Assembly: GCA_963666485.2 (NCBI GenBank)
Contig: CAXXUO010000001.1
Coordinates: forward strand, 1,312,001 to 1,376,000
From: Syntrophorhabdaceae bacterium
GTDB lineage: Bacteria; Desulfobacterota; Syntrophorhabdia; Syntrophorhabdales; Syntrophorhabdaceae
Direction of reading: 5' to 3'
Length of the DNA stretch: 64,000 nucleotides
Shown here: positions 20,861 to 48,471 of the stretch, piece by piece
Numbering within the stretch: position 1 is the first letter of the stretch
Layout of the letters: every line of letters starts with the position of its first letter
Notes under the pieces: generated by a model
The model's input: the letters and a program-made list of their open reading frames with translations, nothing else
Told to the model about the DNA's origin: nothing
Database searches by the model: none
Made by a program: the position numbers and the translations under genes

Positions 20861-20882
20861 CTGTGGTACCTCTTACGGGGGT

Positions 20883-22874: not shown

Positions 22875-22876
22875 GG

Positions 22877-30639: not shown

Positions 30640-30658
30640 CCGGCTGGGAACCTGACCT

Positions 30659-31123: not shown

Positions 31124-32469
31124 CACAGTATTTTCACTCGGTCACCCTTGATACGGAAAAATGCAAGGGATGCACGAACTGCATCAAGCGCTGTCCCGTA
31201 GAGGCGATCAGGGTCCGTGACGGCAAGGCGATGATCGTGCAGGAGCGCTGCATCGATTGCGGCGAATGCATCCGCGAATGTCCCAACCACGCAAAAGTGG
31301 CCGTAACGGATACGCTCGACAAGCTGTCGGATTACTATTACAACATAGCGCTCCCGGCGCCATCCTTCTTTGGCCAGTTTAAGGAACAGGTCAACATCGA
31401 GGATGTTCTCGCCGCATTTGCCGGAATAGGGTTCGACGAGGTGTTCGAGGTCGCCCTGGCCGCGGAGATCGTGGGCCATGCGGTCCATGAGTACCTCGCA
31501 CAGTACAAGGGGAAAAGGCCGATATTCTCTTCGGCGTGCCCGGCGGTGCTGCGGCTCATGCAGATAAAATACCCCGAACTCCTCGAGCAGGTCGCACCGT
31601 TCCTGACGCCCATGGAAGTGGCGGCACGGCTCGCGAAAGAAGATGCCGCGCGCAGGATCGGCGTCCCGTACGAGGAGATAGGCGCGTTCTTCATATCGCC
31701 CTGCCCCGCGAAGGTGACCGAGATGAGAAATCCCATGACGACGAAAAACTCGGCCGTCAATGGCGTCATAGGGGTCAACCTTATATATAAGGATATTATT
31801 AAGCACCTGGGCGACAGGAACCAGACCGGGGCCGTTGAGAACCTCCAGCGCGCCACCCGGCTCGGCATGGCATGGGGCTATGTCACCGGGGAATCGCACA
31901 ATATAGCGGCCGGGTCGACGCTTGCGGTCAGCGGCATCCACAATGTCATCAGCCTTCTCGAGGAGATCGAAAGGGGCGAATTGAAAGATGTCGATTTCGT
32001 CGAACTTCAGGCGTGCACCGGCGGATGCGTCGGCGGCCCCTTGAACATTCAGAACCTGTTCGTGGGACGGATACGGCTTCGGGACCTCATAAAGCGGTTT
32101 GGCTCACGGGGAAGCCACTTCAGCGAGGAAGAGCTTTCCGCCATGAACAGGGACAACCGCTTCACCGCAACGGAACCCATCGAGCCGAGGGCGATCATGA
32201 CCCTTGACGAGGATGTCTCCCGCGCGCTTATGAAGATGGAGCGGCTCGACCAGATAACGAACGAACTCCCGGGGCTCGATTGCGGTGCCTGCGGGTCTCC
32301 GAGCTGCCGCGCGCTCGCCGAGGATATCATCCGGGGTATCGCCTACGAGTCGGACTGCGTGATCAAGCTCCGTGAAAAGGTGAAGACCCTCGCGGAGGAG
32401 ATCCTTGACCTTGCGCGCATCATCCCGCCGTCGATGAGCGACGGGTCAAAAAAGAACGGGCCGGGTTAA
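31120..32469 (+). CDS. Sensory-type [FeFe]-hydrogenase-like Fe-S protein with C-terminal FeS domain
   Basis: 2x[4Fe-4S]; SSACPA, SPCPAKVTE, ELQACTGGCVGG; LPGLDCGACGSPSC. Confidence 0.83.
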   Translation: MTQYFHSVTLDTEKCKGCTNCIKRCPVEAIRVRDGKAMIVQERCIDCGECIRECPNHAKVAVTDTLDKLSDYYYNIALPAPSFFGQFKEQVNIEDVLAAFAGIGFDEVFEVALAAEIVGHAVHEYLAQYKGKRPIFSSACPAVLRLMQIKYPELLEQVAPFLTPMEVAARLAKEDAARRIGVPYEEIGAFFISPCPAKVTEMRNPMTTKNSAVNGVIGVNLIYKDIIKHLGDRNQTGAVENLQRATRLGMAWGYVTGESHNIAAGSTLAVSGIHNVISLLEEIERGELKDVDFVELQACTGGCVGGPLNIQNLFVGRIRLRDLIKRFGSRGSHFSEEELSAMNRDNRFTATEPIEPRAIMTLDEDVSRALMKMERLDQITNELPGLDCGACGSPSCRALAEDIIRGIAYESDCVIKLREKVKTLAEEILDLARIIPPSMSDGSKKNGPG

Positions 32470-32538
32470 GGCCGGCCAAACGCGGCAAAATGCAATTTGG
32501 GGGCATACGATGCCGGAATGGAAAGGGGGGAGGAGAAG

Positions 32539-32889
32539 ATGACCGTTAACGAACTCGCCGGGACCTTGGGTCTCGAGATACTTACGGGAACTATCAATCT
32601 CGACAGGCAGGTAGGTTCAGGGTACACGTCAGATCTGCTCTCCGATGTCATAGCAAATATCGGCGACGACGCGGTGTGGATCACCATACAGCGTCACGTG
32701 AATATTCTCGGCGTTGCCAAGCTCAAAGACGTCTCGGCAATAGTAATACCGCGAGGCCTGGGGCTTGACGACGCGTTCCTGATCAAGGCGAAAGAGGAAG
32801 GGATAGCCGTGCTGAGGGGTGCACAATCAGCATTCGAGCTGTCCGCAATGATATACAATGAGATGAAGAGAGGCCAGGGGGTTGCCTGA
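32539..32889 (+). CDS. DRTGG-domain protein
   Basis: GYTSDLLSDV, VWITIQRHVNI; AGGAG RBS before 32539. Confidence 0.78.
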   Translation: MTVNELAGTLGLEILTGTINLDRQVGSGYTSDLLSDVIANIGDDAVWITIQRHVNILGVAKLKDVSAIVIPRGLGLDDAFLIKAKEEGIAVLRGAQSAFELSAMIYNEMKRGQGVA

Positions 32890-33625
32890 TTTTGCCTGCG
32901 ACCTGCACATACATTCGATCCTGTCGCCGTGCGGAAGTCTTGACATGTCGCCCAGGGTCATCGTGCAGAAGGCGCGGGAAGCGAGGCTCGATATTATAGC
33001 GGTAACCGATCATAACATGACCGAGAACGCCCCGTACGTGAAAGAACTGGGCGAGCGCAGCGGGCTCATCGTCCTGAGCGGCATGGAATTGCAGACACGG
33101 GAGGAGATCCATCTCCTTGCCGTTTTTGACGAGTATGACCGTGCCCGCGAATTGCAGTCGATGGTCTATGACCTTCTGCCGGATGTCCCGAACGACACGG
33201 AATTCTGGGGAGATCAGGCCGTGGTCGACACGGAGGATAACATTGTCCGGATGGAGGAAAGGCTGCTCATAAACTCGGCAGACATATCTGTCGAGGATGC
33301 CGCGTCCTGGATCAAGGCCCATGGCGGGATCGCCATCGCGTCCCATATCGACAGCGCGACATTCAGCATAATAAGCCAGCTGGGTTTCATCCCGGAGCAT
33401 ATAGAGCTCGATGCCCTGGAGGTCCGCAACATCGACGGGGCAGGAGAGTTGGCTCCCTTTATAATGAAGAAGGGCATACCGTTCGTGACGTTCTCGGATG
33501 CCCATTACCCGGACGATATCGGGCGGCGAAGGACGAATCTGACGATGGACGCACCCGGCTGCAGGGGCATAGAAAAGGCCCTGAAAACGTTAGGAGAGAA
33601 GGCGCTGGCCGCGGGACAGGGTTGA
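32882..33625 (+). CDS. PHP-domain phosphoesterase
   Basis: DLHIHS.LSPC, AVTDHN, GME...EEIHLL, SDAH. Confidence 0.88.
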   Translation: MPDFACDLHIHSILSPCGSLDMSPRVIVQKAREARLDIIAVTDHNMTENAPYVKELGERSGLIVLSGMELQTREEIHLLAVFDEYDRARELQSMVYDLLPDVPNDTEFWGDQAVVDTEDNIVRMEERLLINSADISVEDAASWIKAHGGIAIASHIDSATFSIISQLGFIPEHIELDALEVRNIDGAGELAPFIMKKGIPFVTFSDAHYPDDIGRRRTNLTMDAPGCRGIEKALKTLGEKALAAGQG

Positions 33626-33650
33626 AACGGATTGATGGGAACGAACGATC

Positions 33651-34181
33651 ATGATGGAAGATCTTTCGCTGCACATAATGGATATAGTGACGAACTCGGT
33701 ACGGGCCGGGGCAAAAAATATCCTGATAGCTATAGAAAAGGATGATACGACGTCGATGATGAGGCTTGAAGTTTCCGATGACGGTCACGGCATGGATGCC
33801 GAAACGGCCATGAAGGTCCAGGACCCGTTCTTCTCCACGAAAGAGGGGAGGAAGGTCGGGCTCGGGATACCCCTCCTGAAGGGGACGGCCGAGACGACCG
33901 GCGGATCATTTTCCTTAACGAGCGAGGTCGGGGTCGGCACGTGTATCAGGGTAACCTTCGATGCGCTGCACCCGGACCTGCCGCCGCTCGGGAATATCAG
34001 GGACACCTTTTTTGTGCTTATTGTGAGCCATCCGGAGATCGACTTTAACCTGCGCTATGCAGTTGACGGAAAAGACTTCGTTCTCAACACCGTCGAGTGG
34101 CGCAAGGAGCTTGACGGAATTCCGCTCAATCATCCGGAAGTCATTGGATTCTTGAGCAATTATCTTGACGAACATCTGTGA
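33651..34181 (+). CDS. Stand-alone histidine-kinase-like ATPase (HATPase_c)
   Basis: DIVTNS.RAGA, DDGHGMD, DPFFSTK, GLGIP; no HisKA domain. Confidence 0.85.
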   Translation: MMEDLSLHIMDIVTNSVRAGAKNILIAIEKDDTTSMMRLEVSDDGHGMDAETAMKVQDPFFSTKEGRKVGLGIPLLKGTAETTGGSFSLTSEVGVGTCIRVTFDALHPDLPPLGNIRDTFFVLIVSHPEIDFNLRYAVDGKDFVLNTVEWRKELDGIPLNHPEVIGFLSNYLDEHL

Positions 34182-34218: not shown

Positions 34219-34569
34219 ATGAATCTTGAAGAGCTGAAAAAAATAAGGGAAAAAGCGCAGAAAGATGTCGAACTGAGGCAGAAACAGGCCAGGATCCGTA
34301 TCGTTGTCGGAATGGGCACGAGCGGGATCGCGGCCGGCGCACGGGACGTCCTCAAGACGTTCGTCGAAGAAGTGGGGAAGAGGAACCTGACGGATGTTAT
34401 TGTCACGCAGACAGGCGAAAAGGGCCTGGCTTCACAGGAACCGATGGTAGAAGTTTTCGAAGAAAATAAGCCTGCCGTTGTCTATGGCAATATGGATCCG
34501 GAAAAAGCGAAAAGGGTTGTTGTGGAGCACGTTGTCAACGGGCAGCCCGTTTCAGAGTTTGCCATCTAA
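34219..34569 (+). CDS. HydD/HndB-like thioredoxin-fold subunit with no cysteines
   Basis: VGMGTSGIAAGA and QTGEKGLASQEP align to VGM.TCGIAAGA and QTGC.G.C..EP. Confidence 0.8.
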   Translation: MNLEELKKIREKAQKDVELRQKQARIRIVVGMGTSGIAAGARDVLKTFVEEVGKRNLTDVIVTQTGEKGLASQEPMVEVFEENKPAVVYGNMDPEKAKRVVVEHVVNGQPVSEFAI

Positions 34570-34590
34570 GCAATCAACAAGGAGGCCGGC

Positions 34591-35049
34591 TTGGACAGAG
34601 AAGCTATACTCAAGAAATTTGAACCAAACCTGAGCAACATACTCTATATCATGCACGATCTTCAGGATACGAACCCGCAGAGATACCTGGCAAAAGAGGA
34701 TATCGAAGCCTGTGCGGATTACCTGAATGTCCCCTACAGCTATGTACACAGTGTCGCAAGTTTTTACACCATGTTCAGCCTGAAACCGCGCGGGAAGAAT
34801 ATCATCCGGTTGTGTGAATCCCCGCCGTGCCATCTTATGGGGGCCAAGTCACTTCTCGATTACCTGAAAACCTCGCTCAAAGTCGATGTCGGAGGCACGA
34901 CAAAGGACGGTACATTCACGCTTGAAACAACGAGCTGTCTTGGTGCGTGCGGCGTCGCTCCGGCCATGATGCTAAATGAAGAGATGTTCGGCAATCTCAC
35001 ACCAGAGAAGGTCGATACCATCCTTGACCAGAGGAGAAAAGAGATATGA
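34591..35049 (+). CDS. hydC: HydC/NuoE-like [2Fe-2S] subunit
   Basis: LCESPPCH, SCLGACG; TTG start after AAGGAGG. Confidence 0.9.
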   Translation: MDREAILKKFEPNLSNILYIMHDLQDTNPQRYLAKEDIEACADYLNVPYSYVHSVASFYTMFSLKPRGKNIIRLCESPPCHLMGAKSLLDYLKTSLKVDVGGTTKDGTFTLETTSCLGACGVAPAMMLNEEMFGNLTPEKVDTILDQRRKEI

Positions 35050-36632
35050 ACCTCGTAAGAAACCACGTACTGATCAGCATTGATGCAGGGACGGTCATGG
35101 CGGGAGCCAGGGCTGTCGAGAAAGCACTGGTCGACGAGATCGGCAAGCAGGGTCTTTCGGGTGAGATAGCCGTACTGGAAACGGGCAGCATAGGTGCCAC
35201 GGGGCAGGGCGTTGTCATCGTCGTGTACCCGGAAGGGCTGTATTATGCCAACGTCACTCCCGAAGACGCGCATGAGATCGTCGAGGAGCATCTCCTGAAA
35301 GGACGCCCCGTCAAGCGGCTCATGATGACGGAGATGCCGAAGCAGCAGGTCATCCGCAAGGAAAAAACGGGCCTTTTGAAAGAACAGCCCCGGATCGTGC
35401 TCAAGAACAGCGGCGTGATCAACCCTGAAAATATCGACGAATATATAGCCGCCGGCGGGTACGAGGCCATTGAAAAGGCGTTTACCGAGCTCAAACCGGC
35501 GGGTGTCATAAAAGAGATCAAAGACTCGGGGCTCATGGGCCGCGGCGGCGCAGCATTCACGACCGGCATGAAATGGGACTTTGCAAGCAAGGCGCCCGGC
35601 CAGCCGAAATACATCATCTGCAACGCCGACGAAGGCGAGCCGGGGACGTTCAAGGACAGGCTGATCCTTGAAGGTGACCCGCACAAGCTGATCGAGGGCA
35701 TGATGCTCGCGGCATACGCGTTCGGCGGCTCGAAAGGCTTTATCTATATCCGCGGCGAGTACGCCCTTTCGATCGAGCGCCTTGAAAAGGCCATCCAGCA
35801 GGCACGGGACTACGGCATCCTCGGCGACAACATCCTCGAGAGCGGGTTCAATTTCGACCTTGCCGTGATGAAGGGCGCCGGCGCCTATGTGTGCGGCGAG
35901 GAGACCGCCCTCATCGAATCACTCGAGGGCAAGAGGGGCCATCCCCGCAACAAGCCGCCTTACCCGGTAACGGAAGGCCTCTGGGGGAAACCGACCGTCG
36001 TCAACAACGTGGAGACGCTGGCAAACGTCCCGGAGATCATCCGCAACGGCGCGGAGTGGTACCGGGGATACGGGACAGACAAGTGTCCCGGCACGAAGGT
36101 CTACACGATCATCGGGAACGTCGCGACACCGGGCCTTATCGAGGCCGAAATGGGCACGACGCTCCGCGACATCATTTATGAATATGCGGGCGGCATAAAG
36201 GCCGGCAAGCAGTTCAAGGGAGCGCTGTGCGGCGGGGCGGCGGGTGCCTTCTTAGGGCCCGAGATGCTCGACGCCCAGATGGATTTCGTCAATCTCAGGG
36301 AATACGCAGCGGTCCTTGGCTCGGGCGCGATCCTCGTCATGGACGAACAGACGGACATCGTCGATATGCTGCAGAGCGTGCTTCATTTCTTCAAGCACGA
36401 ATCGTGCGGCCACTGCGTGCCCTGCCGTCTCGGGACGAAGCAGCTCGTCGAGATAATCGACCGGATCGCCGCCGGCAAGGGAAAGGCCGGGGATATCGAA
36501 AAGATGGTCAAGATATCGGAGGTCATGCGGGATACGTCGTTCTGCCCGCTGGGACAGTCCCTGAACCTCCCGATCTCCAGTTCTCTGAAATATTTTAAGG
36601 ATGAAGTGTACGGCCGGATACCCCAGGCATAA
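35046..36632 (+). CDS. hydB: Short HydB/NuoF-like flavoprotein, non-bifurcating signature
   Basis: ADEGEPGTFKD, GAGAYVCGEET, GGAAG; no C-terminal ferredoxin domain; Cys-less N-terminal domain. Confidence 0.9.
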   Translation: MNLVRNHVLISIDAGTVMAGARAVEKALVDEIGKQGLSGEIAVLETGSIGATGQGVVIVVYPEGLYYANVTPEDAHEIVEEHLLKGRPVKRLMMTEMPKQQVIRKEKTGLLKEQPRIVLKNSGVINPENIDEYIAAGGYEAIEKAFTELKPAGVIKEIKDSGLMGRGGAAFTTGMKWDFASKAPGQPKYIICNADEGEPGTFKDRLILEGDPHKLIEGMMLAAYAFGGSKGFIYIRGEYALSIERLEKAIQQARDYGILGDNILESGFNFDLAVMKGAGAYVCGEETALIESLEGKRGHPRNKPPYPVTEGLWGKPTVVNNVETLANVPEIIRNGAEWYRGYGTDKCPGTKVYTIIGNVATPGLIEAEMGTTLRDIIYEYAGGIKAGKQFKGALCGGAAGAFLGPEMLDAQMDFVNLREYAAVLGSGAILVMDEQTDIVDMLQSVLHFFKHESCGHCVPCRLGTKQLVEIIDRIAAGKGKAGDIEKMVKISEVMRDTSFCPLGQSLNLPISSSLKYFKDEVYGRIPQA

Positions 36633-36650
36633 GCACATCTCAGGAGGCAG

Positions 36651-38417
36651 TTGATACCTATGATAAAAGCGACCATAAATAACGTTGAGATAGAGGTGCC
36701 GGACGGCACCAACATACTCTGGGCGGCAAAGAAAGCAGGCTTTACGATACCGACGCTGTGCAACCATCCCGACCTTCCGCCGGGAGGCCAGTGCGGTGTC
36801 TGCGTCGTCGAGATCGAGGGGCTGCCTGGCCTGAAAAGGGCCTGTATGACCCCCGTTGGCGAGGGTTTCAAGATCAAGACACATACGCCGAGACTGCAGG
36901 CGACACGCCGGCAGATCGTCGAGCTCATCCTCGCGGACCACGACACGAGCTGCCTGACATGCGTCAAGAACAACAACTGTGAATTGCAGCAGCTTGCATC
37001 GACAGTTGGCCTCAATACACTCGATTACAAGGATGCGCTGAGGGAGAAACACCCCATCGATCATTCAAGCGTGTCGATCGTACGGGACCCGAACAAGTGC
37101 ATACTCTGCGGACGGTGCCTCACGGTCTGCAGCAAGATCCAGACGGTCAATGCCCTTGCCGTCAATCACAGGGGGTCTGAGACTTTGATCTCGACCGCCT
37201 TCGACGCGGGGCTCGGCAACAGCGTCTGCATCAACTGCGGGCAGTGTGTCGTTCATTGCCCTGTCGGCGCCCTGTATGAAAGAAGCGCAACGGAAGAGGT
37301 TTGGGAAGCCCTCCACGATCCCGACAAGTTTGTTGTTGTGCAGGAAGCCCCCGCGGTCCGCGTCATGCTCGGCGAAGAGTTCGGCATGCCCGTCGGAACG
37401 CTCGTCAGCGGCAAGATGCATGCGGCTTTAAGGAGGATGGGCTTTGACGCCGTCCTCGACACGAACTTTGCAGCCGACCTGACGATCCTGGAAGAAGGGA
37501 CGGAGCTCGTCAGCAGGCTTACCTCCGGTAAGAACCTGCCGCTCATCACGTCCTGCAGTCCCGGCTGGATAAAGTTCATGGAAACGTTCTTCCACGACAT
37601 GATACCGCATATGTCGACGGCAAAATCGCCGCAGCAGATGTTCGGCGCGCTGGCCAAGACATATTATGCAAAAGAAAAGGGAATTGACCCCGCAAAAATA
37701 GTTTCCGTTTCGATCATGCCCTGTACGGCGAAAAAGTTCGAGTGCTTACGGCCCGAGATGAACGCCAGCGGGTACCGGGATGTCGACTATGTCCTCACGT
37801 CCCGTGAGATAGGCAGGATGATGCGCGAGGCGGGCATCGATATGAATGAAATGCCCGATGAACACGCCGACCCGATCCTGGGTGAATACACCGGTGCGGC
37901 CACCATCTTCGGTGCAACGGGCGGTGTTATGGAAGCTGCCGTCCGGAGCGCCTATGCTCTCGTTACCGGCAAAGAGCTCGAGAACGTCGAGATCACGCCC
38001 GTGAGGGGCCTCAAAGGGATAAAAGAGGCAGAGGTGGATATAGACGGCACGAAGGTCAAGGTTGCTGTCGCGCACAGTTGCGGCCATGCGAGGGCCCTGC
38101 TCGAGAAGGTGCAGGAGCAGTTGAAGAAAGACGGCAAGTGCGAATACCAGTTCATCGAAATGATGGCGTGCCCCGGCGGGTGTGTGGGCGGCGGCGGCCA
38201 GTCATGGGGCAGCAACATGGCGAAACGTGCACGGCGCGGCGAATCCCTCTACGCAGAGGACAGGAGCCTGCCGATGCGGCGTTCGCATGAGAACCCCGAA
38301 GTAACGGCAGTATACGAAAAGTTTCTCGAGAAACCGAATTCGGAGAAGGCCCACAAGCTTCTCCATACACATTACTTTAAACGGAGTGCTGTAGACGGCA
38401 AAATTCTGCCGGGCTAA
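36651..38417 (+). CDS. hydA: [FeFe]-hydrogenase catalytic subunit (group A)
   Basis: ITSCSPGW, MPCTAKKFE, EMMACPGGCVGG; NuoG-like N-terminus; start 36651 or 36660. Confidence 0.92.
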   Translation: MIPMIKATINNVEIEVPDGTNILWAAKKAGFTIPTLCNHPDLPPGGQCGVCVVEIEGLPGLKRACMTPVGEGFKIKTHTPRLQATRRQIVELILADHDTSCLTCVKNNNCELQQLASTVGLNTLDYKDALREKHPIDHSSVSIVRDPNKCILCGRCLTVCSKIQTVNALAVNHRGSETLISTAFDAGLGNSVCINCGQCVVHCPVGALYERSATEEVWEALHDPDKFVVVQEAPAVRVMLGEEFGMPVGTLVSGKMHAALRRMGFDAVLDTNFAADLTILEEGTELVSRLTSGKNLPLITSCSPGWIKFMETFFHDMIPHMSTAKSPQQMFGALAKTYYAKEKGIDPAKIVSVSIMPCTAKKFECLRPEMNASGYRDVDYVLTSREIGRMMREAGIDMNEMPDEHADPILGEYTGAATIFGATGGVMEAAVRSAYALVTGKELENVEITPVRGLKGIKEAEVDIDGTKVKVAVAHSCGHARALLEKVQEQLKKDGKCEYQFIEMMACPGGCVGGGGQSWGSNMAKRARRGESLYAEDRSLPMRRSHENPEVTAVYEKFLEKPNSEKAHKLLHTHYFKRSAVDGKILPG

Positions 38418-38454: not shown

Positions 38455-38952
38455 ATGTCGGAAGAAAAACAATGTCAGTGCGCCGAGATTCAGGAGGAGG
38501 AGCTCTACCCCCGGCTGGACGAGGTGATAAACCAGCACAAGGGGAAAGGGGAAGACCTTATCATGGTTCTCCACAAGGCGCAGAACCTGTTTGGCTATCT
38601 TCCCAGACGTGCGCAGGAAATGGTTGCCGAGGGATTGAATGTCTCCCTCAATGAGGTCTATGGCGTCATAACATTCTACAATTTCTTCTCCACCGTGCCT
38701 CAGGGACGCAACAGCGTCAAGGTATGCCTCGGTACGGCATGCTATGTCAGGGGTTCCCAGGAAGTCCTCGACAAAGCGCAGAAAGAGCTCGGGATCAAAG
38801 TGGGCGGGACGACCGAGGACCGCCGCTATTCCCTCGATGTTGTGCGCTGTATCGGTGCATGCGGCCTTGCGCCTGCAATGCTGGTGAATGAAGATGTGTA
38901 TGGGCGTGTGAAATCGCCGCATCTCGTCGATATACTCAAAAAGTACGAGTAA
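38455..38952 (+). CDS. hydC: HydC/NuoE-like [2Fe-2S] subunit
   Basis: VCLGTACY, RCIGACG. Confidence 0.92.
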   Translation: MSEEKQCQCAEIQEEELYPRLDEVINQHKGKGEDLIMVLHKAQNLFGYLPRRAQEMVAEGLNVSLNEVYGVITFYNFFSTVPQGRNSVKVCLGTACYVRGSQEVLDKAQKELGIKVGGTTEDRRYSLDVVRCIGACGLAPAMLVNEDVYGRVKSPHLVDILKKYE

Positions 38953-38967
38953 GGAGGAAGGTTAACC

Positions 38968-41900
38968 ATGGAGGTATCTCGCGCTCACATATTGGTATGT
39001 GCAGGAGCTGCATGCGTCTCGTCCGGCTGCCGCCAGATCAGGGATGCTGTTGTCAATAAAATCGTCGAGCAGGGTTTGCAGAATGAGATCAAGGTCATCG
39101 AGACAGGCTGTATCGGTTCATGTGATCTGGGTCCGCTCGCACTGGTCTATCCCGAAGGCGTCCTCTACCAGAAGCTGAAACCAGAGGATGCGGAAGAGAT
39201 CGTTACCGAGCACCTGCTCAAGGGACGGATCGTCGACCGCCTGTTGTATAAGGAAGCGACGACGGCAAAGGCGATCCCTTCAATGAAAGAGATCGACTTC
39301 TTCAAGAACCAGATCAAGATCGTCTTGCGCAATTGCGGCGTCATCAACCCGATGAACATCGAGGAATACATTGCGCGGGACGGCTACCTGGCCCTCGGCA
39401 AGGCCCTTACCTCGATGACGAGAGAAGATGTTGTCGAGGAGGTCTTGAAATCAGGGCTTCGCGGCCGCGGCGGCGGCGGGTTCCCGACCGGCCTCAAGTG
39501 GAAATTTGCCCAGCAGTCGCCGGGCGACGTGAAATACGTTGTCTGCAACGCCGATGAAGGCGACCCCGGGGCTTTCATGGACCGCAGCGTTCTCGAAGGC
39601 GACCCGCATAGCGTCATCGAGGCGATGGCAATAGCCGCGTACGCGATAGGGGCGCAGCAGGGCTACGTGTATGTCAGGGCCGAGTATCCGCTTGCGATCG
39701 ACCGCCTGAACTGGGCGATCGGGCAGGCCAGGGAATACAAGTTCCTCGGCAAGAACATCCTGGAGACGGGGTTCAATTTCGACCTCGAGATCCGTATCGG
39801 CGCCGGCGCATTCGTCTGCGGCGAAGAGACGGCCCTCATGATATCGATCGAAGGCAAGCGCGGCGAGCCAAGGCCACGGCCGCCTTTCCCGGTCGTCAAA
39901 GGCCTCTTCAACGCCCCGACACTCCTCAACAACGTCGAAACATACGCCAACATAGCGGCGATCATCAATAACGGTGCCGCCTGGTACGCCCAGTACGGGA
40001 CCGAAAAGAGCAAGGGAACGAAGGTCTTCGCCCTTGCCGGCGCGGTCAACAACACGGGCCTCGTGGAAGTCCCCATGGGCACACCGCTCGGCGACATCGT
40101 CTTCAACATAGGCGGCGGCATCAAGGACGGCAAGAAATATAAAGCCGCACAGTTAGGCGGGCCGTCGGGGGGATGTATTCCCATACAGCACCTGAACGTA
40201 CCGGTCGATTATGAATCGGTCGCGGAGCTTGGTGCGATCGTCGGTTCCGGCGGTCTCATCGTGGCCGACGAAGATACATGTATGGTCGACTTTGCCCGGT
40301 TCTTCCTCGACTTCATCCAGCACGAGTCCTGCGGCAAGTGCCCGCCGTGCCGTATCGGTACGAAAAGGATGCTCGAGATCTTAAAGAGGATCACCCATGG
40401 TGAAGGAAAGCCGACCGACATAGATGACCTCGTCGAGCTTGCGACAAGGATCAAGGATGCAGCGCTCTGCGGCCTCGGCCAGACGGCGCCGAACCCCATT
40501 CTGTCCACACTCAAATTCTTCAAAGATGAATACCTCGAACACATCGAGGACAAGCATTGCCGCGCAGGCGTCTGCAGTGCCCTGTTTGACGCGCCATGCC
40601 AGAACGCATGCCCCGCCGACCAGAATGCGTGGGGCTATGTCACCCTGATAGGCGAAGGCAAAATGAAAGAGGCCATCGCGGTCATCAAGGAAGCGAACCC
40701 GTTCCCGGCCACATTGGGCAGGGTCTGCGTGCACCCGTGCGAAGCGAAATGCCGCCGGGCCCAGATAGACGCACCGGTGTCGATATGTTCACTGAAGCGC
40801 TATGCGGCGGATGTGGACATGGCCTCGTACCCGCGCTACAAACCGCAGGTAGAGCAGCCGAAGGGCAAGAAGGTCGCCGTTATCGGCGCAGGCCCGGCCG
40901 GTCTCGCGGGCGCGTACTTCCTCGCCCTGAAGGGCTACGGGGTGACCGTCTTCGAATCCCTGCCGGTCGCAGGCGGAATGCTGGCAGTCGGTATCCCCGA
41001 TTACCGGCTCCCGCGCGATGTTCTCAACAACGAGATAAAGTCCATCACGGACCTTGGCATCGAGATCAAGTACAACACCGTGTTTGGTAAAGATATAACG
41101 AGCGAGAAGCTTTTCAAGGATGGCTACAGCGCGGTCCTTATCGCAACAGGGGCGCACAAGGGACAGAAACTCGGTGTCCCGGGTGAGGAGACGAAAGGCG
41201 TCCTCGACGGCGTGACCTTCTTGAGGGATGTCAATCTCGGTAATACCATGAAGGTAGAAGGAAAGGTTGTCGTGATAGGCGGCGGAAACGTGGCGATCGA
41301 TGCCGCGCGCGCTGCCTTGAGGCTCGGCGCGGCTGACGTGTCGATCCTGTACAGGCGCGAGAGATCGGACATGCCTGCCTACATCGAGGAGATCGACGAG
41401 GCGGAAGTTGAAGGCATCAAGATCCATACGCTGGTGGCCCCGAAATCAGTCGTGGAAAAAGACGGCAAAGTGGCAGGGATCTCCTGCATGCGGATGCTGC
41501 TCGGCAAGTTCGATTCGGGCGGCAGGCGCAGACCGGAACCAATCACCGGGTCCGACTTTGTTGTCGATGCCGATATGATCATAGCGGCTATCGGCCAGGT
41601 CCCCGACCTGTCATGGATGAACGGTGACGGGGTGAAGGCGGACAAAGCCGGAACAGTCGACGTTAATATGAAGACCCTGGCCACGGCAGCCGAAGGTATA
41701 TTCGCGGCAGGCGACAATGTCAGGGGTCCCGCAACGGTCGTCGAGGCGGTCGGTGACGGCAAGAATGCCGCCATGGCTATCGATGAGTTCCTGGGCGGCG
41801 ACGGTATAGCACCGAACGCATTCCGTGATGAACTCGTCCAGATGACGGTATCGTACGATGAGGCGGAATACCAGAAAGAGATCGGCAGGATGAAAATGCC

Positions 41901-42021
41901 TCACCTGCCGGTATCGAAACGCGACAAGAACTTCAACGAGGTCGTCCTTGGCTATGATAACAAAGCGGCCGTTGAGGAAGCGAAACGGTGTCTCCACTGC
42001 TATGTGAGGACAAGCGAGTAA
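38968..42021 (+). CDS. HydB/NuoF fused to a GltD/NfnB-like FAD/NAD(P)H oxidoreductase, 1017 aa
   Basis: ADEGDPGAFMD, GAGAFVCGEET, GGPSGG, then PCQNACP, GRVCVHPCE, IGAGPAG, IGGGNVAID, YRR, AAGD. Confidence 0.9.
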   Translation: MEVSRAHILVCAGAACVSSGCRQIRDAVVNKIVEQGLQNEIKVIETGCIGSCDLGPLALVYPEGVLYQKLKPEDAEEIVTEHLLKGRIVDRLLYKEATTAKAIPSMKEIDFFKNQIKIVLRNCGVINPMNIEEYIARDGYLALGKALTSMTREDVVEEVLKSGLRGRGGGGFPTGLKWKFAQQSPGDVKYVVCNADEGDPGAFMDRSVLEGDPHSVIEAMAIAAYAIGAQQGYVYVRAEYPLAIDRLNWAIGQAREYKFLGKNILETGFNFDLEIRIGAGAFVCGEETALMISIEGKRGEPRPRPPFPVVKGLFNAPTLLNNVETYANIAAIINNGAAWYAQYGTEKSKGTKVFALAGAVNNTGLVEVPMGTPLGDIVFNIGGGIKDGKKYKAAQLGGPSGGCIPIQHLNVPVDYESVAELGAIVGSGGLIVADEDTCMVDFARFFLDFIQHESCGKCPPCRIGTKRMLEILKRITHGEGKPTDIDDLVELATRIKDAALCGLGQTAPNPILSTLKFFKDEYLEHIEDKHCRAGVCSALFDAPCQNACPADQNAWGYVTLIGEGKMKEAIAVIKEANPFPATLGRVCVHPCEAKCRRAQIDAPVSICSLKRYAADVDMASYPRYKPQVEQPKGKKVAVIGAGPAGLAGAYFLALKGYGVTVFESLPVAGGMLAVGIPDYRLPRDVLNNEIKSITDLGIEIKYNTVFGKDITSEKLFKDGYSAVLIATGAHKGQKLGVPGEETKGVLDGVTFLRDVNLGNTMKVEGKVVVIGGGNVAIDAARAALRLGAADVSILYRRERSDMPAYIEEIDEAEVEGIKIHTLVAPKSVVEKDGKVAGISCMRMLLGKFDSGGRRRPEPITGSDFVVDADMIIAAIGQVPDLSWMNGDGVKADKAGTVDVNMKTLATAAEGIFAAGDNVRGPATVVEAVGDGKNAAMAIDEFLGGDGIAPNAFRDELVQMTVSYDEAEYQKEIGRMKMPHLPVSKRDKNFNEVVLGYDNKAAVEEAKRCLHCYVRTSE

Positions 42022-42048: not shown

Positions 42049-43773
42049 ATGAAGATCAGCCTTACTATTGACGGGCGTCCGCTGGAGGTCGAAGAGGGGA
42101 TAAGCATTCTTGACGCGGCCAAATCGGCAAATGTCCATATACCGACGCTATGCTACCTGCCCGAGGTCCAGGCGATCGGGGCGTGCAGGGTTTGCCTTGT
42201 CGAGATCGAGGGGAACCGTACGCTTCAGGCGGCCTGTGTATCACCGGTCGCCAAGGGCCAGGTAATATATACGAACACAGACAGGGTCCGCAAGGCGCGG
42301 CGTTTTGCCGTCGAAATGCTCCTGTCCAACCACCCCTTCGACTGCTTGAGCTGTGCAAAGAACCTCCATTGCGACCTGCAGTCGCTTGCCTATGAACTCG
42401 GCATCCGTGAGATCAGGTTCACCGGGGAACAATCAACCGGCAGGATCGATGAATCCTCCCCGTCCATACGGCGTGACCAGAATAAATGCATCCTGTGCAG
42501 GCGGTGTGTGACCGTGTGCCAGGATATCCAGTCCGTAACCGCCCTTTTCATGCAGGGCAGGGGCTTTGAGACCCGGGTCGAACCCGCATTTGACCGCGAC
42601 ATCAACGATGTCGCATGCACGAATTGCGGCCAGTGCTCGATCGTCTGCCCCGTTGGTGCAATTACGGAAAAAGAATATATCGATGACGTGTTCGCGGCCA
42701 TTTACGATCCCACGAAATTTGTCGTCATCCAGGATGCGCCCGCGGTGAGGGCGGCCCTCGGCGAGGAATTCGGGTATCCCCCGGGCACCCTCGTCACGGG
42801 AAAGATGCTCGCAGCCGCCCGGAAGCTCGGTTTTGACCGGGTTTTCGATACCAATTTTGCCGCCGACCTGACCATCCTCGAAGAAGGGACCGAATTGTTG
42901 ACCCGGGTCAAGGAAGGCGGGACACTCCCCATGATAACGAGCTGCAGTCCCGGCTGGATCAAGTTCATTGAGCATTTCTACCCGGAACTGCTCGACCATC
43001 TCTCCACGTGCAAATCACCGCACATGATGCTGGGCGCACTGACAAAGACGTATTTCGCTAAAAAGGCGGGCGTCGACCCGAAGGATATCGTGGTCGTATC
43101 CGTCATGCCGTGTACGGCGAAGAAGTTCGAGTGCAACCGGCCGGAGATGTATGACAGCGGGTATAAGGATGTCGATTACGTCCTGACAACGCGCGAATTT
43201 GCGAAAATGATCAAACAGGCCGGAATTGATTTCGAGAACCTTCCCGATGAAATGTATGATGACCCTATGGGTGAATATACCGGCGCAGCCACGATCTTCG
43301 GCGCAACCGGCGGGGTTATGGAAGCGGCATTGAGGACTGCCTACGAGGTAGCGACCGGCCGTGTCCTTGAAAATGTTGAATTTACGGCGGTGCGCGGGCT
43401 TGAAGGGATAAAAGAGGCGACAGTGCCCGTCGAAGGCCTGGGAGATGTGAGGGTTGCCGTGTCGCACGGTCTTGGCAATGCCCGCAAACTGCTCGACAGG
43501 ATAAAGGCAGGCGAGGCCAACTACCACTTCATCGAAGTCATGGCCTGTCCCGGCGGGTGCGTGGGCGGCGGCGGCCAGCCGATCCCGGTCACGAACGAGA
43601 TCAGGATCTTGAGGGCACAGGCCCTGTACAACGAGGACGCACACCTGAAATACAGGAAGTCCCACGAGAACCCGTCGATCACGAAGATCTACGAAGAATT
43701 CCTGGGTGCGCCGCTGGGTGAGAAATCACATCACCTGCTGCATACCCACTATACACCGCGAAACAAAATCTAG
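42049..43773 (+). CDS. hydA: [FeFe]-hydrogenase catalytic subunit (group A)
   Basis: ITSCSPGW, MPCTAKKFE, EVMACPGGCVGG. Confidence 0.93.
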   Translation: MKISLTIDGRPLEVEEGISILDAAKSANVHIPTLCYLPEVQAIGACRVCLVEIEGNRTLQAACVSPVAKGQVIYTNTDRVRKARRFAVEMLLSNHPFDCLSCAKNLHCDLQSLAYELGIREIRFTGEQSTGRIDESSPSIRRDQNKCILCRRCVTVCQDIQSVTALFMQGRGFETRVEPAFDRDINDVACTNCGQCSIVCPVGAITEKEYIDDVFAAIYDPTKFVVIQDAPAVRAALGEEFGYPPGTLVTGKMLAAARKLGFDRVFDTNFAADLTILEEGTELLTRVKEGGTLPMITSCSPGWIKFIEHFYPELLDHLSTCKSPHMMLGALTKTYFAKKAGVDPKDIVVVSVMPCTAKKFECNRPEMYDSGYKDVDYVLTTREFAKMIKQAGIDFENLPDEMYDDPMGEYTGAATIFGATGGVMEAALRTAYEVATGRVLENVEFTAVRGLEGIKEATVPVEGLGDVRVAVSHGLGNARKLLDRIKAGEANYHFIEVMACPGGCVGGGGQPIPVTNEIRILRAQALYNEDAHLKYRKSHENPSITKIYEEFLGAPLGEKSHHLLHTHYTPRNKI

Positions 43774-44323: not shown

Positions 44324-45757
44324 ATGATGACTGATTTCAGGACTGAAAGGGATGCGCTGGGCGAAATGAATGTCCCCGCCGATGCCTACTGGGGCATCCA
44401 TACACAGAGGGCCTTGAAGAACTTTGCCGTCTCTTCCTTCCGTGTCCCCGGCGAAATGATCATCGCGCTCGCAGAGGTCAAGCTCGCCTGCGCACGAGCG
44501 AACATGCGCGCGGGGCTTCTCGACACCGGCATCGGTGATGCGATCGCTCAGGCTGCGAAGGAAGTGGCCGGCGGCGCATTAGCCGATCAGTTCATCGTGG
44601 ACGCCTTCCAGGGAGGGGCCGGGACTTCGACCAATATGAATATGAACGAGGTGCTTGCCAACCGGGCCATCGAGCTCACCGGTGGGCAAAAAGGCGATTA
44701 CAGCATCGTCCACCCCCTCGACCATGTCAATCTTTCGCAATCGACCAATGATGTCTATCCGACCGCGCTGAAGGTCGCAGCTGTGAGGCTCGTCATAACG
44801 TTAAGCGAGGGTATCGCCCGGCTGCAGGGATCATTTCAGAATAAGGAAAAGGAATTCGCAGGCATCCTGAAGCTCGGGCGGACCGAGATGCGCGACGCCG
44901 TTCCGATCATGCTGGGACAGGAATTCGGTGCGTACGCCGAGGCATTCGCCCGGGACAGGTGGCGCCTTTTCAAGGTCGAAGAACGCTTACGCCAGGTGAA
45001 TCTCGGCGGGACTGCCGTCGGGACGGGCCTTAACGCGCGACGCGAATATATCGCATACGCCATAGAAGAACTGCAGGATATTACCGGGCTTGGTATCGCG
45101 CGCGCGGAGAACATGATCGACATAACCCAGAACGCCGACGTCTTCGCCGAGGTCTCGGCTCTCATCAAGGCAGCGGCTGTCAACCTCGCCAAGGTGTCTG
45201 CGGACCTGCGCCTTCTTTCCCTGGGGCCCCGCGGCGGCCTCGCGGAGATCAGCCTGCCCGTCCGCCAGGAAGGGTCCTCGATCATGCCCGACAAGGCAAA
45301 TCCTGTCATCAGCGAGATGGCGTCGAGCGTTGCCTTCCAGGTTATGAGCCTCGACCACGCGGTGACCCTTGCGGCATCGTCGGGGCAGCTCGAGCTCAAC
45401 GCCTTCATGCCGCTTATCGCCTTCAACCTTCTCACGGAACTCAAGATCATGATAAATGCCGTGTCCATCTTCCGGACGGAGCTCGTCGACGGGGTGACCG
45501 CGGATGAAGGGCGCTGCAGGAAATGGCTCGAGGACAGCCTGTGCCTCGCCACGGCCCTTGCCCCGTATATCGGGCACGAGGCGGCGGCGGAGATATCGCG
45601 GGTGGCGCGCACCGAGGGTAAGACGATCGGCGAGATCGCTGTTGAAAAAGGGTATTTTTCCGCTGAAGAGATCGGGTCCATATTCAAATCCCGGGAACTG
45701 ACTCGCCCGGGAATAGCGGGATCAAGCAAGGTAAAGAGGCAGGACAACAAAAAATGA
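44324..45757 (+). CDS. aspA: Aspartate ammonia-lyase
   Basis: YWGIHTQRA, QGGAGTSTNMN.NEV, SQSTND, GSSIMPDKANPV. Confidence 0.88.
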   Translation: MMTDFRTERDALGEMNVPADAYWGIHTQRALKNFAVSSFRVPGEMIIALAEVKLACARANMRAGLLDTGIGDAIAQAAKEVAGGALADQFIVDAFQGGAGTSTNMNMNEVLANRAIELTGGQKGDYSIVHPLDHVNLSQSTNDVYPTALKVAAVRLVITLSEGIARLQGSFQNKEKEFAGILKLGRTEMRDAVPIMLGQEFGAYAEAFARDRWRLFKVEERLRQVNLGGTAVGTGLNARREYIAYAIEELQDITGLGIARAENMIDITQNADVFAEVSALIKAAAVNLAKVSADLRLLSLGPRGGLAEISLPVRQEGSSIMPDKANPVISEMASSVAFQVMSLDHAVTLAASSGQLELNAFMPLIAFNLLTELKIMINAVSIFRTELVDGVTADEGRCRKWLEDSLCLATALAPYIGHEAAAEISRVARTEGKTIGEIAVEKGYFSAEEIGSIFKSRELTRPGIAGSSKVKRQDNKK

Positions 45758-46992
45758 CAGACACGCTTAACCAGACACCGCGGGGCAGCCGCCTCCACAT
45801 CGCGATCTTCGGCAGGCGCAACGCCGGTAAGTCAAGCCTTATCAACGCACTGACGAGCCAGGACATTGCGATCGTCTCCGACGTCCCGGGAACCACGACG
45901 GACCCTGTCTACAAATCCATGGAGATCCTGCCGATCGGGCCGGTCGTCATTATCGACACGGCGGGCATCGACGACACCGGCGATCTCGGCAGGCTCAGGA
46001 TAGAAAAGGCGCTCGGCGTCCTGAACAAAACAGACCTCATGCTCCTCGTCGTCGACCCGGTCGCCGGTTACGGGCAATTCGAAGAGGATATCATTGCCCG
46101 TGCGGCCGAGAACAAGGTACCCGTCGTTATCGTTGTGAATAAAATGGACCGGCACCCCGGATACGTTCCGGATGAGGCGTTAAGCCGCGCCGGCCGTCCC
46201 GTGATCATGGTGAGCGCGCTTACCCGTCAGGGCATCGATGATCTCAAGATGGCGATGATCAAAGAGGCCCCGAAGGACTTCATGAACCCGACGATCTTGG
46301 GGGACCTCATAGGCCCCGGTGACACCGTTGTCCTTGTCACCCCGATCGACCTTGCCGCCCCGAAAGGCAGGCTTATCCTCCCGCAGGTCCAGACGATCCG
46401 GGACATACTCGACAACGAGGCCATGGCTTTCGTCGTAAAGGAAAGGGAGCTCAAGGGTGCGCTCGCCGCGCTGAAAGACAAGCCGCGCCTCGTCGTTACG
46501 GATTCCCAGGCCTTCAACAAGGTGGCTGCGGACACACCCAAAGACGTTCCTATGACGTCTTTCTCGATACTCTTCGCGCGCCACAAAGGGAACCTCACCG
46601 CACTCGTAAAAGGCGTCAAAGCAATCGATGATCTCGAGCCGGGAGACAGGGTGCTGATTTCGGAGGCCTGTACCCATCACAGGGTGGAAGATGATATTGG
46701 AACGGTAAAGATACCGCGATGGCTGAATCAGCTTGTCGGGGGCCCGCTCGATTACGCGACGGTGAGCGGCCTTGAATTGCCGCAGGACCTCACGCAGTAC
46801 AAGCTCATCATACATTGCGGGGCATGCATGATAAACCGGAAGGAAATGCTTCACCGGATCATGGTGGCGCAGCACGCCGGGATACCGATCGTGAATTACG
46901 GGGTCCTTATAGCCCACGTCATGGGTATACTCGAAAGGGCACTGAGGCCATTCCCCGAGGTCCGGGAGGTTTTGGAAAATGGCGAAAAATAA
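45754..46992 (+). CDS. hydF: [FeFe]-hydrogenase maturation GTPase HydF
   Basis: GRRNAGKSS, DTAG, NKMD, EACTHH, HCGACM. Confidence 0.95.
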   Translation: MTDTLNQTPRGSRLHIAIFGRRNAGKSSLINALTSQDIAIVSDVPGTTTDPVYKSMEILPIGPVVIIDTAGIDDTGDLGRLRIEKALGVLNKTDLMLLVVDPVAGYGQFEEDIIARAAENKVPVVIVVNKMDRHPGYVPDEALSRAGRPVIMVSALTRQGIDDLKMAMIKEAPKDFMNPTILGDLIGPGDTVVLVTPIDLAAPKGRLILPQVQTIRDILDNEAMAFVVKERELKGALAALKDKPRLVVTDSQAFNKVAADTPKDVPMTSFSILFARHKGNLTALVKGVKAIDDLEPGDRVLISEACTHHRVEDDIGTVKIPRWLNQLVGGPLDYATVSGLELPQDLTQYKLIIHCGACMINRKEMLHRIMVAQHAGIPIVNYGVLIAHVMGILERALRPFPEVREVLENGEK

Positions 46993-47055
46993 GGGCATCG
47001 GGGTTTCTTTACATTTCGCAGAACGCGCAATATACTTAGGTGACGGAGGCCGCAT

Positions 47056-48471
47056 ATGAAGAGAAATGACGAGGTACAGCGGGCCGATTTTATTGATGAA
47101 GCAAAAATATTCCGGACGCTGGAAAAGGCAAAGAACGCTTCGGTTGCCGAGGTGCTCGACATCATAGAAAAAGGACGTGAGGCAAAGGGCCTTGACCCCT
47201 ATGAGACCGCGGTGCTCCTGCACGCCGCGGACGGAGATGTCGAGCATGCCCTCTTTAAGGCGTCCCGTGAGGTCAAGGAAAAGATATACGGGCAGCGCCT
47301 TGTTCTCTTTGCGCCGCTCTATATCAGCAATTACTGCATCAACAATTGTACATATTGCGGGTACAGGCGGCACAACGCAATACCGAGGGAACGCCTTACG
47401 ATGGACGAGATCGAGCGCGAGGTCATCGCCCTCGAGGCCATGGGGCACAAGCGGATCGCCCTGGAAGTCGGTGAGGACCCGAAGAATTGCCCGATCGACT
47501 ATGTCCTCGAGGCCATGAAAAAGATCTATTCCGTCAAAGAATCGACGGGGAGCATCCGGCGCATTAACGTCAACATCGCCGCGACGACGGTCGAGGATTA
47601 TCGCAAGCTCAAAGAGGCGGGGATAGGCACGTACATCCTTTTCCAGGAGACCTACCACCGCGAGACATATAAAAAGAGCCACCCCGCAGGCCCGAAAAAG
47701 GATTATGACTGGCACACGACGGCAATGGACCGTGCGATGCAGGCGGGCATCGACGATGTCGGTTTAGGGGTCCTTTTCGGCCTTTTCGACTACAAATACG
47801 AGGTCCTCGGACTCCTCTACCATTCGCTCCACCTCGAGGAGCGCTTCGGGGTCGGGTGCCACACCATCTCTGTCCCGCGCATGAGGCCGGCCGAAGGGAT
47901 CAATTTCGACACATTCCCATACCTGGTGAACGATCACGATTTCAAGAGGATGGTATCCATCATACGGCTTGCAGTTCCCTACACCGGTATGATACTGTCG
48001 ACACGGGAACCTGCCGGATACCGGGACGAGGTCATAGCGCTCGGCATTTCGCAGATCAGCGCGGGTTCCTGCACGGGTGTCGGCGGCTACCACAAGGACA
48101 TCGAAAAGCCGGACAAGAAAACGTACGGGCAGTTCCAGGTGGAAGACAACCGCACGACCGACGAAATGCTCCTGAGTGTTTGCAAGTCGGGTTACCTTCC
48201 CAGTTTTTGCACGGCATGCTACCGGCAGGGACGGACCGGCGACAGGTTCATGGCCCTCGCAAAGACAGGCGAGATCCAGAATATCTGCCAGCCGAACGCG
48301 ATACTGACCTTTAAGGAATTTGTGGTGGACTACGCATCGCCCGAGACCAAAGCGGCAGGTGAAGAGGTGATACGCATGCATCTCGACAAGATAGCGAACC
48401 CGAAGATGCGCAAGGAGATAGAAAAACGGCTCGCGAAGATCGAGGCCGGGGAGAGGGACCTCTATTTTTGA
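47056..48471 (+). CDS. hydG: [FeFe]-hydrogenase maturation radical SAM enzyme HydG
   Basis: NYCINNCTYCGY; C-terminal SFCTACYR...C auxiliary cluster motif (absent from ThiH). Confidence 0.95.
   Translation: MKRNDEVQRADFIDEAKIFRTLEKAKNASVAEVLDIIEKGREAKGLDPYETAVLLHAADGDVEHALFKASREVKEKIYGQRLVLFAPLYISNYCINNCTYCGYRRHNAIPRERLTMDEIEREVIALEAMGHKRIALEVGEDPKNCPIDYVLEAMKKIYSVKESTGSIRRINVNIAATTVEDYRKLKEAGIGTYILFQETYHRETYKKSHPAGPKKDYDWHTTAMDRAMQAGIDDVGLGVLFGLFDYKYEVLGLLYHSLHLEERFGVGCHTISVPRMRPAEGINFDTFPYLVNDHDFKRMVSIIRLAVPYTGMILSTREPAGYRDEVIALGISQISAGSCTGVGGYHKDIEKPDKKTYGQFQVEDNRTTDEMLLSVCKSGYLPSFCTACYRQGRTGDRFMALAKTGEIQNICQPNAILTFKEFVVDYASPETKAAGEEVIRMHLDKIANPKMRKEIEKRLAKIEAGERDLYF

Follow-up and report, generated by a model that had tools for sequence, protein, structure and literature searches.

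A 64,000-nucleotide (nt) stretch of DNA from a Syntrophorhabdaceae bacterium (assembly GCA_963666485.2, contig CAXXUO010000001.1, positions 1,312,001 to 1,376,000 of the forward strand) was analysed and is referred to below as the window. The window is free of N. On its plus strand, at 38968-42021, lies a hydB gene whose product joins a HydB/NuoF core to a second module of the GltD fold. The gene is a single open reading frame of 1017 amino acids (aa) with no internal stop. It is separated from hydC by 15 nt and from hydA by 27 nt, with a purine-rich Shine-Dalgarno-like run in each gap, and the position between these two genes that a first-pass annotation had reported is thereby borne out. The hydA product scores 921 bits against NCBIfam NF040763 (cut-off 765). 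The genes and the parts of the fusion are listed here, with the sites for flavin mononucleotide (FMN), flavin adenine dinucleotide (FAD), nicotinamide adenine dinucleotide (NAD(H)) and its phosphate (NADP(H)).

38455..38952, plus strand: hydC (BfuC/NuoE-like, 165 aa), with C1 [2Fe-2S] ligands C91, C96, C132 and C136 (PF01257, E=1.6e-49).
38968..42021, plus strand: hydB fusion, BfuB core plus StnC/NfnA-type FAD/NADP module (open reading frame, Pfam, structure-chain matches).
38974..39210, plus strand: thioredoxin-like domain, B5 ligands C11, C16, C48 and C52 (PF01257, residues 3-81).
39445..39957, plus strand: FMN/NAD(H) Rossmann domain with glycine loop 166-173, A202-F-M204 and E287 (PF01512; alignment to 9bov_B).
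40027..40173, plus strand: SLBB domain (Pfam), with the bifurcating-type signatures F354 and GGPSG 397-401.
40288..40542, plus strand: four-helix bundle with B1 [4Fe-4S] ligands C455, C458, C461 and C501 (PF10589).
40540..40575, plus strand: Zn (B2) hinge H525, C531 and C536 (with C438), then a 7-residue spacer to the first Cys of the module.
40597..40824, plus strand: DPD-II dicluster, predicted A7 (C548, C587, C591, K610) and half of A6 (C544, C595).
40867..41760, plus strand: GltD fold (PF07992) with FAD Rossmann (GAGPAG, R680) and predicted NADP(H) Rossmann (GGGNVA, YRR).
41857..42000, plus strand: circularly permuted segment ending in CxxC (C1008, C1011), predicted to complete A6.
42049..43773, plus strand: hydA, [FeFe]-hydrogenase catalytic subunit, 574 aa, H-cluster motifs P1-P3 intact.

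Residues 1-540 make up the HydB/NuoF core and residues 542-1011 the FAD/NADP module. The Pfam domains are arranged in the order thioredoxin-like [2Fe-2S] (3-81), Complex1_51K (160-330), SLBB (354-402), NADH_4Fe-4S (441-525), Fer4_20 (DPD II, 531-619) and Pyr_redox_2 (634-931), and the domain-architecture check proposed earlier thus returns a NuoF-type core followed by DPD II and Pyr_redox_2. No Fer4 dicluster domain appears in the Pfam scan of the fusion, and B3/B4 are therefore absent. The motifs GAGPAG, GGGNVA and YRR occupy residues 640-645, 771-776 and 795-797, respectively. When compared with solved chains, residues 3-543 align with A. woodii HydB at 798 bits, and the best matches of residues 542-1011 are NfnA and StnC of the Stn/NfnABC transhydrogenases. 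No single solved chain among the best 60 matches covers both halves.

The integrity of the fusion was assessed from its homologs. Among the matches listed there are 119 homologs besides the query itself; 115 of these reach 1000 aa or more and cover both halves, with identities of 68-96%, which rules out chance read-through. A frameshift or an assembly chimera as the origin of the fusion was rejected on the homolog lengths together with the loci of relatives. Breaks are present in 4 of 23 close loci, at differing places, and are probably sequence errors. Motif conservation was counted in an alignment of 178 full-length fusions, made of the 115 listed homologs (68-96% identical to the query) and 63 sequences taken from loci; the four homologs shorter than 1000 aa were excluded, and the 178 aligned sequences are related and partly redundant.

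The same domain exchange has been described previously. Zheng and Huang (2024, PMC11406978) defined it as sub-type I of BfuABC, in which a DPD_II domain and a C-terminal FAD/NAD(P) domain replace B3/B4 of BfuB; homologs were noted in Syntrophus gentianae, Desulfotignum balticum, Spirochaetota and Planctomycetota, and BfuD is optional. The fusion carries this replacement and is flanked by adjacent bfuC and bfuA genes, the latter with P1-P3 motifs. No architectural difference from the sub-type I BfuABC(D) group A3 [FeFe]-hydrogenases was found. The HydB-GltD fusion is, on these features, a real and well-conserved member of a published hydrogenase sub-type; the functional proposal attached to it is plausible and not new. 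The novelty implied by the first-pass annotation was overstated, since both the domain swap and a two-flavin hypothesis were in print in 2024 (PMC11406978). A search of the supplement of that paper returned no Syntrophorhabdus or Syntrophus entry. A biochemical study of a complete HydB-GltD fusion was not found in the full-text literature, whose coverage leaves out most subscription papers, so that its absence is unproven.

The Bfu survey of Schut et al. (2022, PMC9304861) required a ferredoxin domain and would omit such fusions by definition. The FMN, SLBB and NuoF iron-sulfur domains of BfuB are present here together with BfuC and BfuA; the ferredoxin-type domain IPR017896 (B3/B4) is lacking, which places the fusion outside that definition. 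Despite the definition, the fusion enzyme likely works like a BfuABC member. It shares the FMN/NAD site, B1, B5, the Zn hinge, HydC and HydA with the HydABC enzymes of A. woodii (7q4v), A. mobile (7t2r), T. maritima (7p5h) and T. kivui (8a6t). Unlike the bifurcating HydABC enzymes, it carries a second flavin module in place of the C-terminal 2x[4Fe-4S] ferredoxin-like domain.

The residues of the FMN site were compared with those of Caldicellulosiruptor (Csac) NfnB, for which the NADH contacts have been reported (PMC11829005). F159, K164, E274 and F294 of 9bov_B correspond to F172, K177, E287 and F307 of the fusion in an ungapped alignment. Losey et al. (2020, PMC7311640) used A/E232 with M234, F367 and GGPSG to tell bifurcating from non-bifurcating beta subunits. 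The fusion has A202, M204, F354 and GGPSG (397-401) at these places, and the earlier description of a NuoF core with bifurcating-type motifs holds. Among the 178 fusions, A-x-M is found in 177, F354 in 178 and GGPSG in 176; the Zn ligands are kept in all 178 and all four B5 Cys in 171. The 528-aa HydB encoded directly upstream served as an internal control: it has T-F-K, Y and GGAAG at these places and lacks the Zn, B5 and B3/B4 ligands. On the minus strand, the canonical HydB of 630 aa combines the bifurcating set with B3/B4. By these residues the bifurcation apparatus is retained in the fusions although B3/B4 are gone, and the adjacent truncated HydB has the non-bifurcating versions.

These counts bear on the idea that the enzyme is an uncoupled hydrogenase of dual specificity, in which FMN/NAD and FAD/NADP are independent exits for H2:NAD+ and H2:NADP+ activity, with energy-independent transhydrogenation from NADPH to NAD+. 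B3/B4 are missing here as in the non-bifurcating enzymes of syntrophs, a ferredoxin site is not evident from the sequence, and PntB has no match in the host genome (99% complete). The near-invariance of the bifurcating signatures, B5 and the Zn hinge in the 178 fusions, all of which are missing from the adjacent non-bifurcating HydB, argues against such an enzyme, as does the prospect that an ungated link would drain NADPH. Uncoupled operation is considered unlikely.

The appended module was compared with NfnA/StnC and NfnB/NfnL proteins of solved structure. C548, C587, C591 and K610 of the fusion align with C108, C147, C151 and K170 of Csac NfnA, a cluster A7 with three Cys and one Lys, and K610 likewise aligns with K170 of StnC. 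K610 is kept in 178 of 178 fusions; both NfnB copies of the same genome have Glu at this place. The permuted C-terminal segment gives a separate high-scoring segment pair to the N-terminus of 4ylf_B, of 5jca_L and of the NfnB of its own genome. The CxxC motif is thus C-terminal in the fusion, as in StnC, and N-terminal in NfnB/NfnL. The module scores 393-426 bits against NfnA/StnC and 279-299 bits against NfnB/L. R680 corresponds to StnC R239 and is kept in 178 of 178 fusions, and YRR is present in 175 of 178, the other three having CLES. No NfnA(S)-type partner gene was found among the neighbours of the fusion in the window and the close loci.

With its Lys-ligated A7, C-terminal CxxC, GxGxxA and conserved Arg, the module is, by these features, of the StnC/NfnA type (StnC 8oh5, Csac NfnA 9bov, Tsi NfnA 9n5u) and not of the NfnB type. 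The exchange of the ferredoxin domain for a GltD-like module that the first-pass annotation had described is confirmed by Pfam, but its NfnB-like assignment is not. Differences from Stn/NfnABC are also apparent. In those enzymes the module lies within the A subunit, where it feeds A3 on the mid-potential wire, B3/B4 are present and there is no H-cluster; here it sits on the B subunit, and HydA is an ordinary subunit of 574 aa. StnC C114 is replaced by Ala. The GltD fold, two [4Fe-4S] clusters, FAD and an NADP(H) site are shared with NfnAB/NfnSL (4ylf, 5jca), whereas the Glu-ligated FAD-proximal cluster, the N-terminal CxxC, the bifurcating FAD and the adjacent NfnS partner of those enzymes have no counterpart seen in the fusion. 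Among distant representatives of 50% clusters, the A7 ligand can also be Glu or His, mostly with a decayed FMN site, which counts against the generality of the Lys ligand. Four such distant full-length fusions (P0124, P0129, P0132 and P0133) have a decayed FMN loop and Glu at the A7 position, as in bifurcating NfnB.

At the level of sequence, the proposal of two nucleotide sites finds support in the FMN-site NADH contacts and in the second Rossmann motifs GxGxxA/YRR. The reading of GxGxxA plus RR as a sign of NADP(H) is likewise supported; the same residues occur in the NADPH enzymes StnC, NfnA and NfnB, and GxGxxA has been proposed as NADP-type for StnC (PMC7483475). The enzyme is likely to link hydrogen with NADH as well as NADPH.

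In their computational study, Zheng and Huang (PMC11406978) postulated that the FAD is an additional, NfnB-type bifurcating centre, which is also one way to read the first-pass annotation. The fold is that of NfnB (295 bits to 4ylf_B), and the Arg equivalent to NfnB R201 is R680, invariant as noted above. The Arg of NfnB/NfnL is hydrogen-bonded to FAD N5, a contact that depends on geometry as well as on the residue being kept. StnC keeps the same Arg and yet does not bifurcate; Kumar et al. (PMC10482914) argued from structure and mutants that the StnC-type FAD is non-bifurcating. An NfnB-type bifurcating FAD is unlikely in the fusion: at the proximal cluster the ligand is Lys, which the non-bifurcating StnC/NfnA proteins share, and not Glu. 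The StnC-type permuted topology, the bit scores and the missing NfnA(S)-type partner point the same way, and bifurcation at the FAD appears very improbable.

The surroundings of the gene set include the following features.

30289..34181, plus strand: regulatory cassette of DRTGG, anti-sigma-type kinase, hydrogenase-like Fe-S protein, PHP and HATPase genes, which starts the same-strand run.
34219..38417, plus strand: hydD-hydC-hydB(528 aa)-hydA set with non-bifurcating signatures, upstream and adjacent.
44324..48471, plus strand: aspA, hydF and hydG, aspartate ammonia-lyase and H-cluster maturation genes.

A hydD-like gene (34219-34569) heads the upstream set and does not adjoin the fusion, BfuD being optional in sub-type I. 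Earlier work reported aspA amid hydrogenase maturation genes and a hydrogenase with an SfrB-like partner next to it (PMC3543383), and both are seen here. The scan for promoters and terminators remained near the level of shuffled sequence (11 versus 8.3 +/- 2.5 and 15 versus 13.2 +/- 3.9, respectively). A third, canonical bifurcating hydCBA set lies at 17971-25935 on the minus strand, with the 630-aa HydB that has B3/B4 and a HydA of 674 aa; a Rex-like regulator, a sensory-type hydrogenase-like protein and a SpoIIE phosphatase are encoded with it. Canonical, non-bifurcating and NADP-module hydrogenases are thus found together on a 27-kb island. Elsewhere in the window, a formate dehydrogenase alpha subunit appears in two open reading frames (7254-9953, plus strand) with the split directly behind the active-site motif, at what is probably a selenocysteine codon, and adjacent multiheme cytochrome c genes of 413 and 629 aa are found at 54196-57323 (plus strand).

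Also present in the host genome (99% complete) are NfnAB in two copies, a fusion of GltD with HydA, a further BfuABC set and a nuo operon that includes an SfrB-like subunit; RnfC gave no match above the cut-off. The GltD-HydA fusion (L002:784-4212) has 1142 aa and a Lys-type A7 and is a candidate single-chain NADPH-linked [FeFe]-hydrogenase. In the nuo operon (L001:2299-6655), an SfrB-like protein of B1 plus GltD (649 aa) and a NuoG-like subunit replace NuoEFG. At L003:9522-16307, BfuC-BfuB-BfuA-like genes are followed directly by NfnA and NfnB, and a fused NfnAB (753 aa) is encoded nearby.

The distribution of the fusion was followed with the 150-aa junction. At E<=1e-40 it matches 50 of 61 Syntrophorhabdaceae genomes, including 12 of 12 of the genus, and 48 of the 50 matches are at least 74% identical. 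In a sample of 301 genomes of the phylum, 170 have a match at E<=1e-25, with shorter SfrB-type proteins counted along with full fusions. In the 23 close loci, hydA follows the fusion in 21; one locus is ended by a contig edge and one has no hydA. A non-bifurcating hydC-hydB-hydA set lies upstream in 21 of the 23. At one locus (L026) the upstream set has no hydA and none was detected after the fusion, which leaves two B and two C genes and no A gene at the locus.

Partner subunits were examined in 40 phylum matches with long reading frames, hand-picked for family diversity, all of which are fusions. The partner is HydA in 5, FdhA-like in 12 and some other subunit in 16, of which 4 are NuoG-like, and none is found nearby in 7. 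Nine loci (L118, L127, L128, L131, L137, L143, L146, L151 and L154) have a molybdopterin-fold subunit upstream and a MetV-sized open reading frame downstream; of the three scanned with Pfam, two are MetV and one is MetF. An aldehyde oxidoreductase, a glutamate-synthase-like protein and a decayed copy beside a molybdopterin enzyme occur once each. The CLES sequence in place of YRR is found in L137, L146 and L154 and suggests a changed nucleotide site. Formate dehydrogenase and the other partners are not mentioned in the parts of PMC11406978 that were compared. In the seven loci with HydC/HydD and the fusion and no catalytic A subunit in the DNA fetched (L117, L119, L130, L134, L135, L139 and L142), the DRTGG-kinase-PHP-HATPase cassette is often present. 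In four fusions of 1131-1231 aa (L150, L179, L180 and L181) the FMN site is dead, a ferredoxin domain has been added at the C-terminus and NuoE is missing from the neighbourhood; these fusions lie behind genes for molybdopterin and Fe-S subunits.

A quick tree of the modules was built from 83 rows, one candidate being omitted for a short match; its deep forks are open or weakly supported. The partner types interleave on it, which is consistent with a portable module. It is possible, though still short of probable, that HydC and the fusion form a portable bifurcation module that needs no ferredoxin and distributes electrons between NAD as the high-potential and NADP as the low-potential acceptor.

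The arrangement of the junction was compared with that of the canonical HydB. The Zn site of solved Bfu enzymes serves as the hinge about which the B3/B4 domain moves (PMC9499530), and mobile C1 hands low-potential electrons to this Zn-hinged domain (PMC8880783, PMC9499530). From the last Zn ligand to the first A6 ligand there are 7 residues in 179 of 179 sequences, including the query. In canonical HydB, the first Cys of the ferredoxin domain lies 11-12 residues past the last Zn ligand in 50 of 51 sequences. Because the first A6 ligand follows the Zn hinge after an invariant 7 residues, A6 would most simply stand at the place of B3.

Loss of B3/B4 alone need not abolish bifurcation, since cyanobacterial HoxEFUYH, which has no B3/B4 and keeps the three motifs, bifurcates (preprint 10.64898/2026.06.25.734504). 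HoxEFUYH resembles the fusion enzyme in its BfuB-like core with AFM, F and GGPSG; it differs in being a [NiFe] enzyme with no GltD module that uses free ferredoxin and is inactive with NADPH (10.64898/2026.06.25.734504). For T. sibiricus NfnABC, removal of B4 lowered the activity from 17.2 to 0.76 U/mg, and the authors concluded that C1 cannot reduce ferredoxin directly (PMC12018979). C1 would therefore need a bound acceptor, for which A6 is the sole candidate in the fusion enzyme. The place of A6, the precedent of the Hox motifs and the need for a bound acceptor in NfnABC together suggest coupling of H2, NAD and NADP without ferredoxin.

The mechanism that we favour, tentatively and at a level just under probable, is bifurcation at FMN with a low-potential arm that ends on NADP+ and not on ferredoxin. 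The enzyme would be ferredoxin-independent, with the net reaction 2 H2 + NAD+ + NADP+ <-> NADH + NADPH + 2 H+. Electrons would leave the H-cluster by way of the HydA clusters and reach the B1-FMN-C1 site, and NAD+ would take up a hydride at FMN, both as known from relatives. The low-potential electrons would continue from C1 through A6 and A7 to FAD, which would act as a plain converter between one- and two-electron transfer to NADP+. In a syntroph-type host the enzyme would run mainly towards H2, with NADPH pulling the oxidation of NADH. With a potential of -370 mV for NADPH, the computed equilibrium is ~3 Pa of H2 for NADH alone (-280 mV) versus ~100 Pa for the NADH/NADPH pair. Cultures of syntrophs reach 5.9-36.6 Pa of H2 (PMC7311640). 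The four dead-FMN relatives, which lack a neighbouring NuoE and have gained a ferredoxin domain, and of which three of the four tabulated have lost a B1 ligand, give a weak hint, from two families, that A6 is not wired straight to B1.

Several points weigh against this mechanism. We infer the C1-to-A6 contact and the wiring behind it, and the conservation of the motifs, counted on related sequences, may in part reflect ancestry. NAD and NADP share a standard potential, and the energetic gain would be small. Some of the evidence fits a hybrid of a hydrogenase and an Stn enzyme, in which the FAD module sits on the mid-potential wire through contact of A6 with B1 or a HydA cluster, either NADPH or H2 can serve as the mid-potential substrate, and FMN bifurcates to NAD+ and ferredoxin. 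Free ferredoxin would then dock at A6 or, as has been suggested for HoxEF, close to HydC/B5. In every Bfu enzyme of solved structure the Lys-ligated module, as in StnC/NfnA, feeds the mid-potential wire (PMC11829005, PMC10482914), and Hox uses free ferredoxin with no B3/B4 (10.64898/2026.06.25.734504).

The SfrB-type proteins bear on the same question. In these proteins of ~650 aa the same module comes after a B1 helix bundle, at a comparable distance, which we take to be the domain layout of Geobacter SfrB as well, and they differ from the fusion in having no thioredoxin, FMN or SLBB domain. The B1-to-A6 spacer is 43-48 residues in 13 of 13 fetched loci and 43 in the fusion; its persistence in proteins with no FMN domain allows a direct A6-B1 link. 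Most lack the Zn ligands, some keep part of them, and their modules fall among those of the fusions in the quick tree with weak support (83-87). The name is that of the NADPH oxidoreductase subunit of Geobacter SfrAB (PMC7483475, PMC3543383). The 7 of 40 loci with no A subunit nearby, which the NADP+-reducing FMN mechanism leaves with no third substrate, would make sense in the hybrid as compact BfuBC(D) transhydrogenases of NADPH, NAD and ferredoxin. A spare A subunit (PF10588) is absent from 2 of the 5 genomes of such loci that were checked, and unpaired copies are present elsewhere in the other 3; with one Pfam family examined, these loci discriminate between the models with a mixed outcome.

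Other observations speak against the hybrid: C1 of T. sibiricus NfnABC does not reduce ferredoxin directly, the 475-residue module would fill the ferredoxin-binding place of NfnABC, and the SfrB-type proteins, mostly lacking Zn ligands, may be re-oriented. The unpaired A subunits in 3 of 5 genomes, and the presence of two NfnAB copies along with a GltD-HydA fusion in the host, also count against it. The hybrid is regarded as rather unlikely. Mixed cases, such as docking of ferredoxin at A6, are quite improbable.

What is added here to the published sub-type is a residue-level argument against bifurcation at the FAD and the observation that the module changes its catalytic partner. The automatic labels NuoF, HndC and FAD-dependent oxidoreductase mask the fusion architecture. 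Either leading outcome, NADP as a low-potential sink or a combined hydrogenase/Stn enzyme, would inform the mechanism of the Bfu family. If the portable ferredoxin-free module is real, it would serve a range of catalytic subunits in diverse anaerobes, among them hydrogenases, formate dehydrogenases and aldehyde oxidoreductases, as a Bfu-type enzyme with NADP+ as its low-potential acceptor, and would give syntrophs a middle gear for H2 and formate production near 10-100 Pa. The fusion is close to a core gene of Syntrophorhabdaceae and is frequent in the phylum, and it is relevant to the disposal of NADH by syntrophs when H2 is low.

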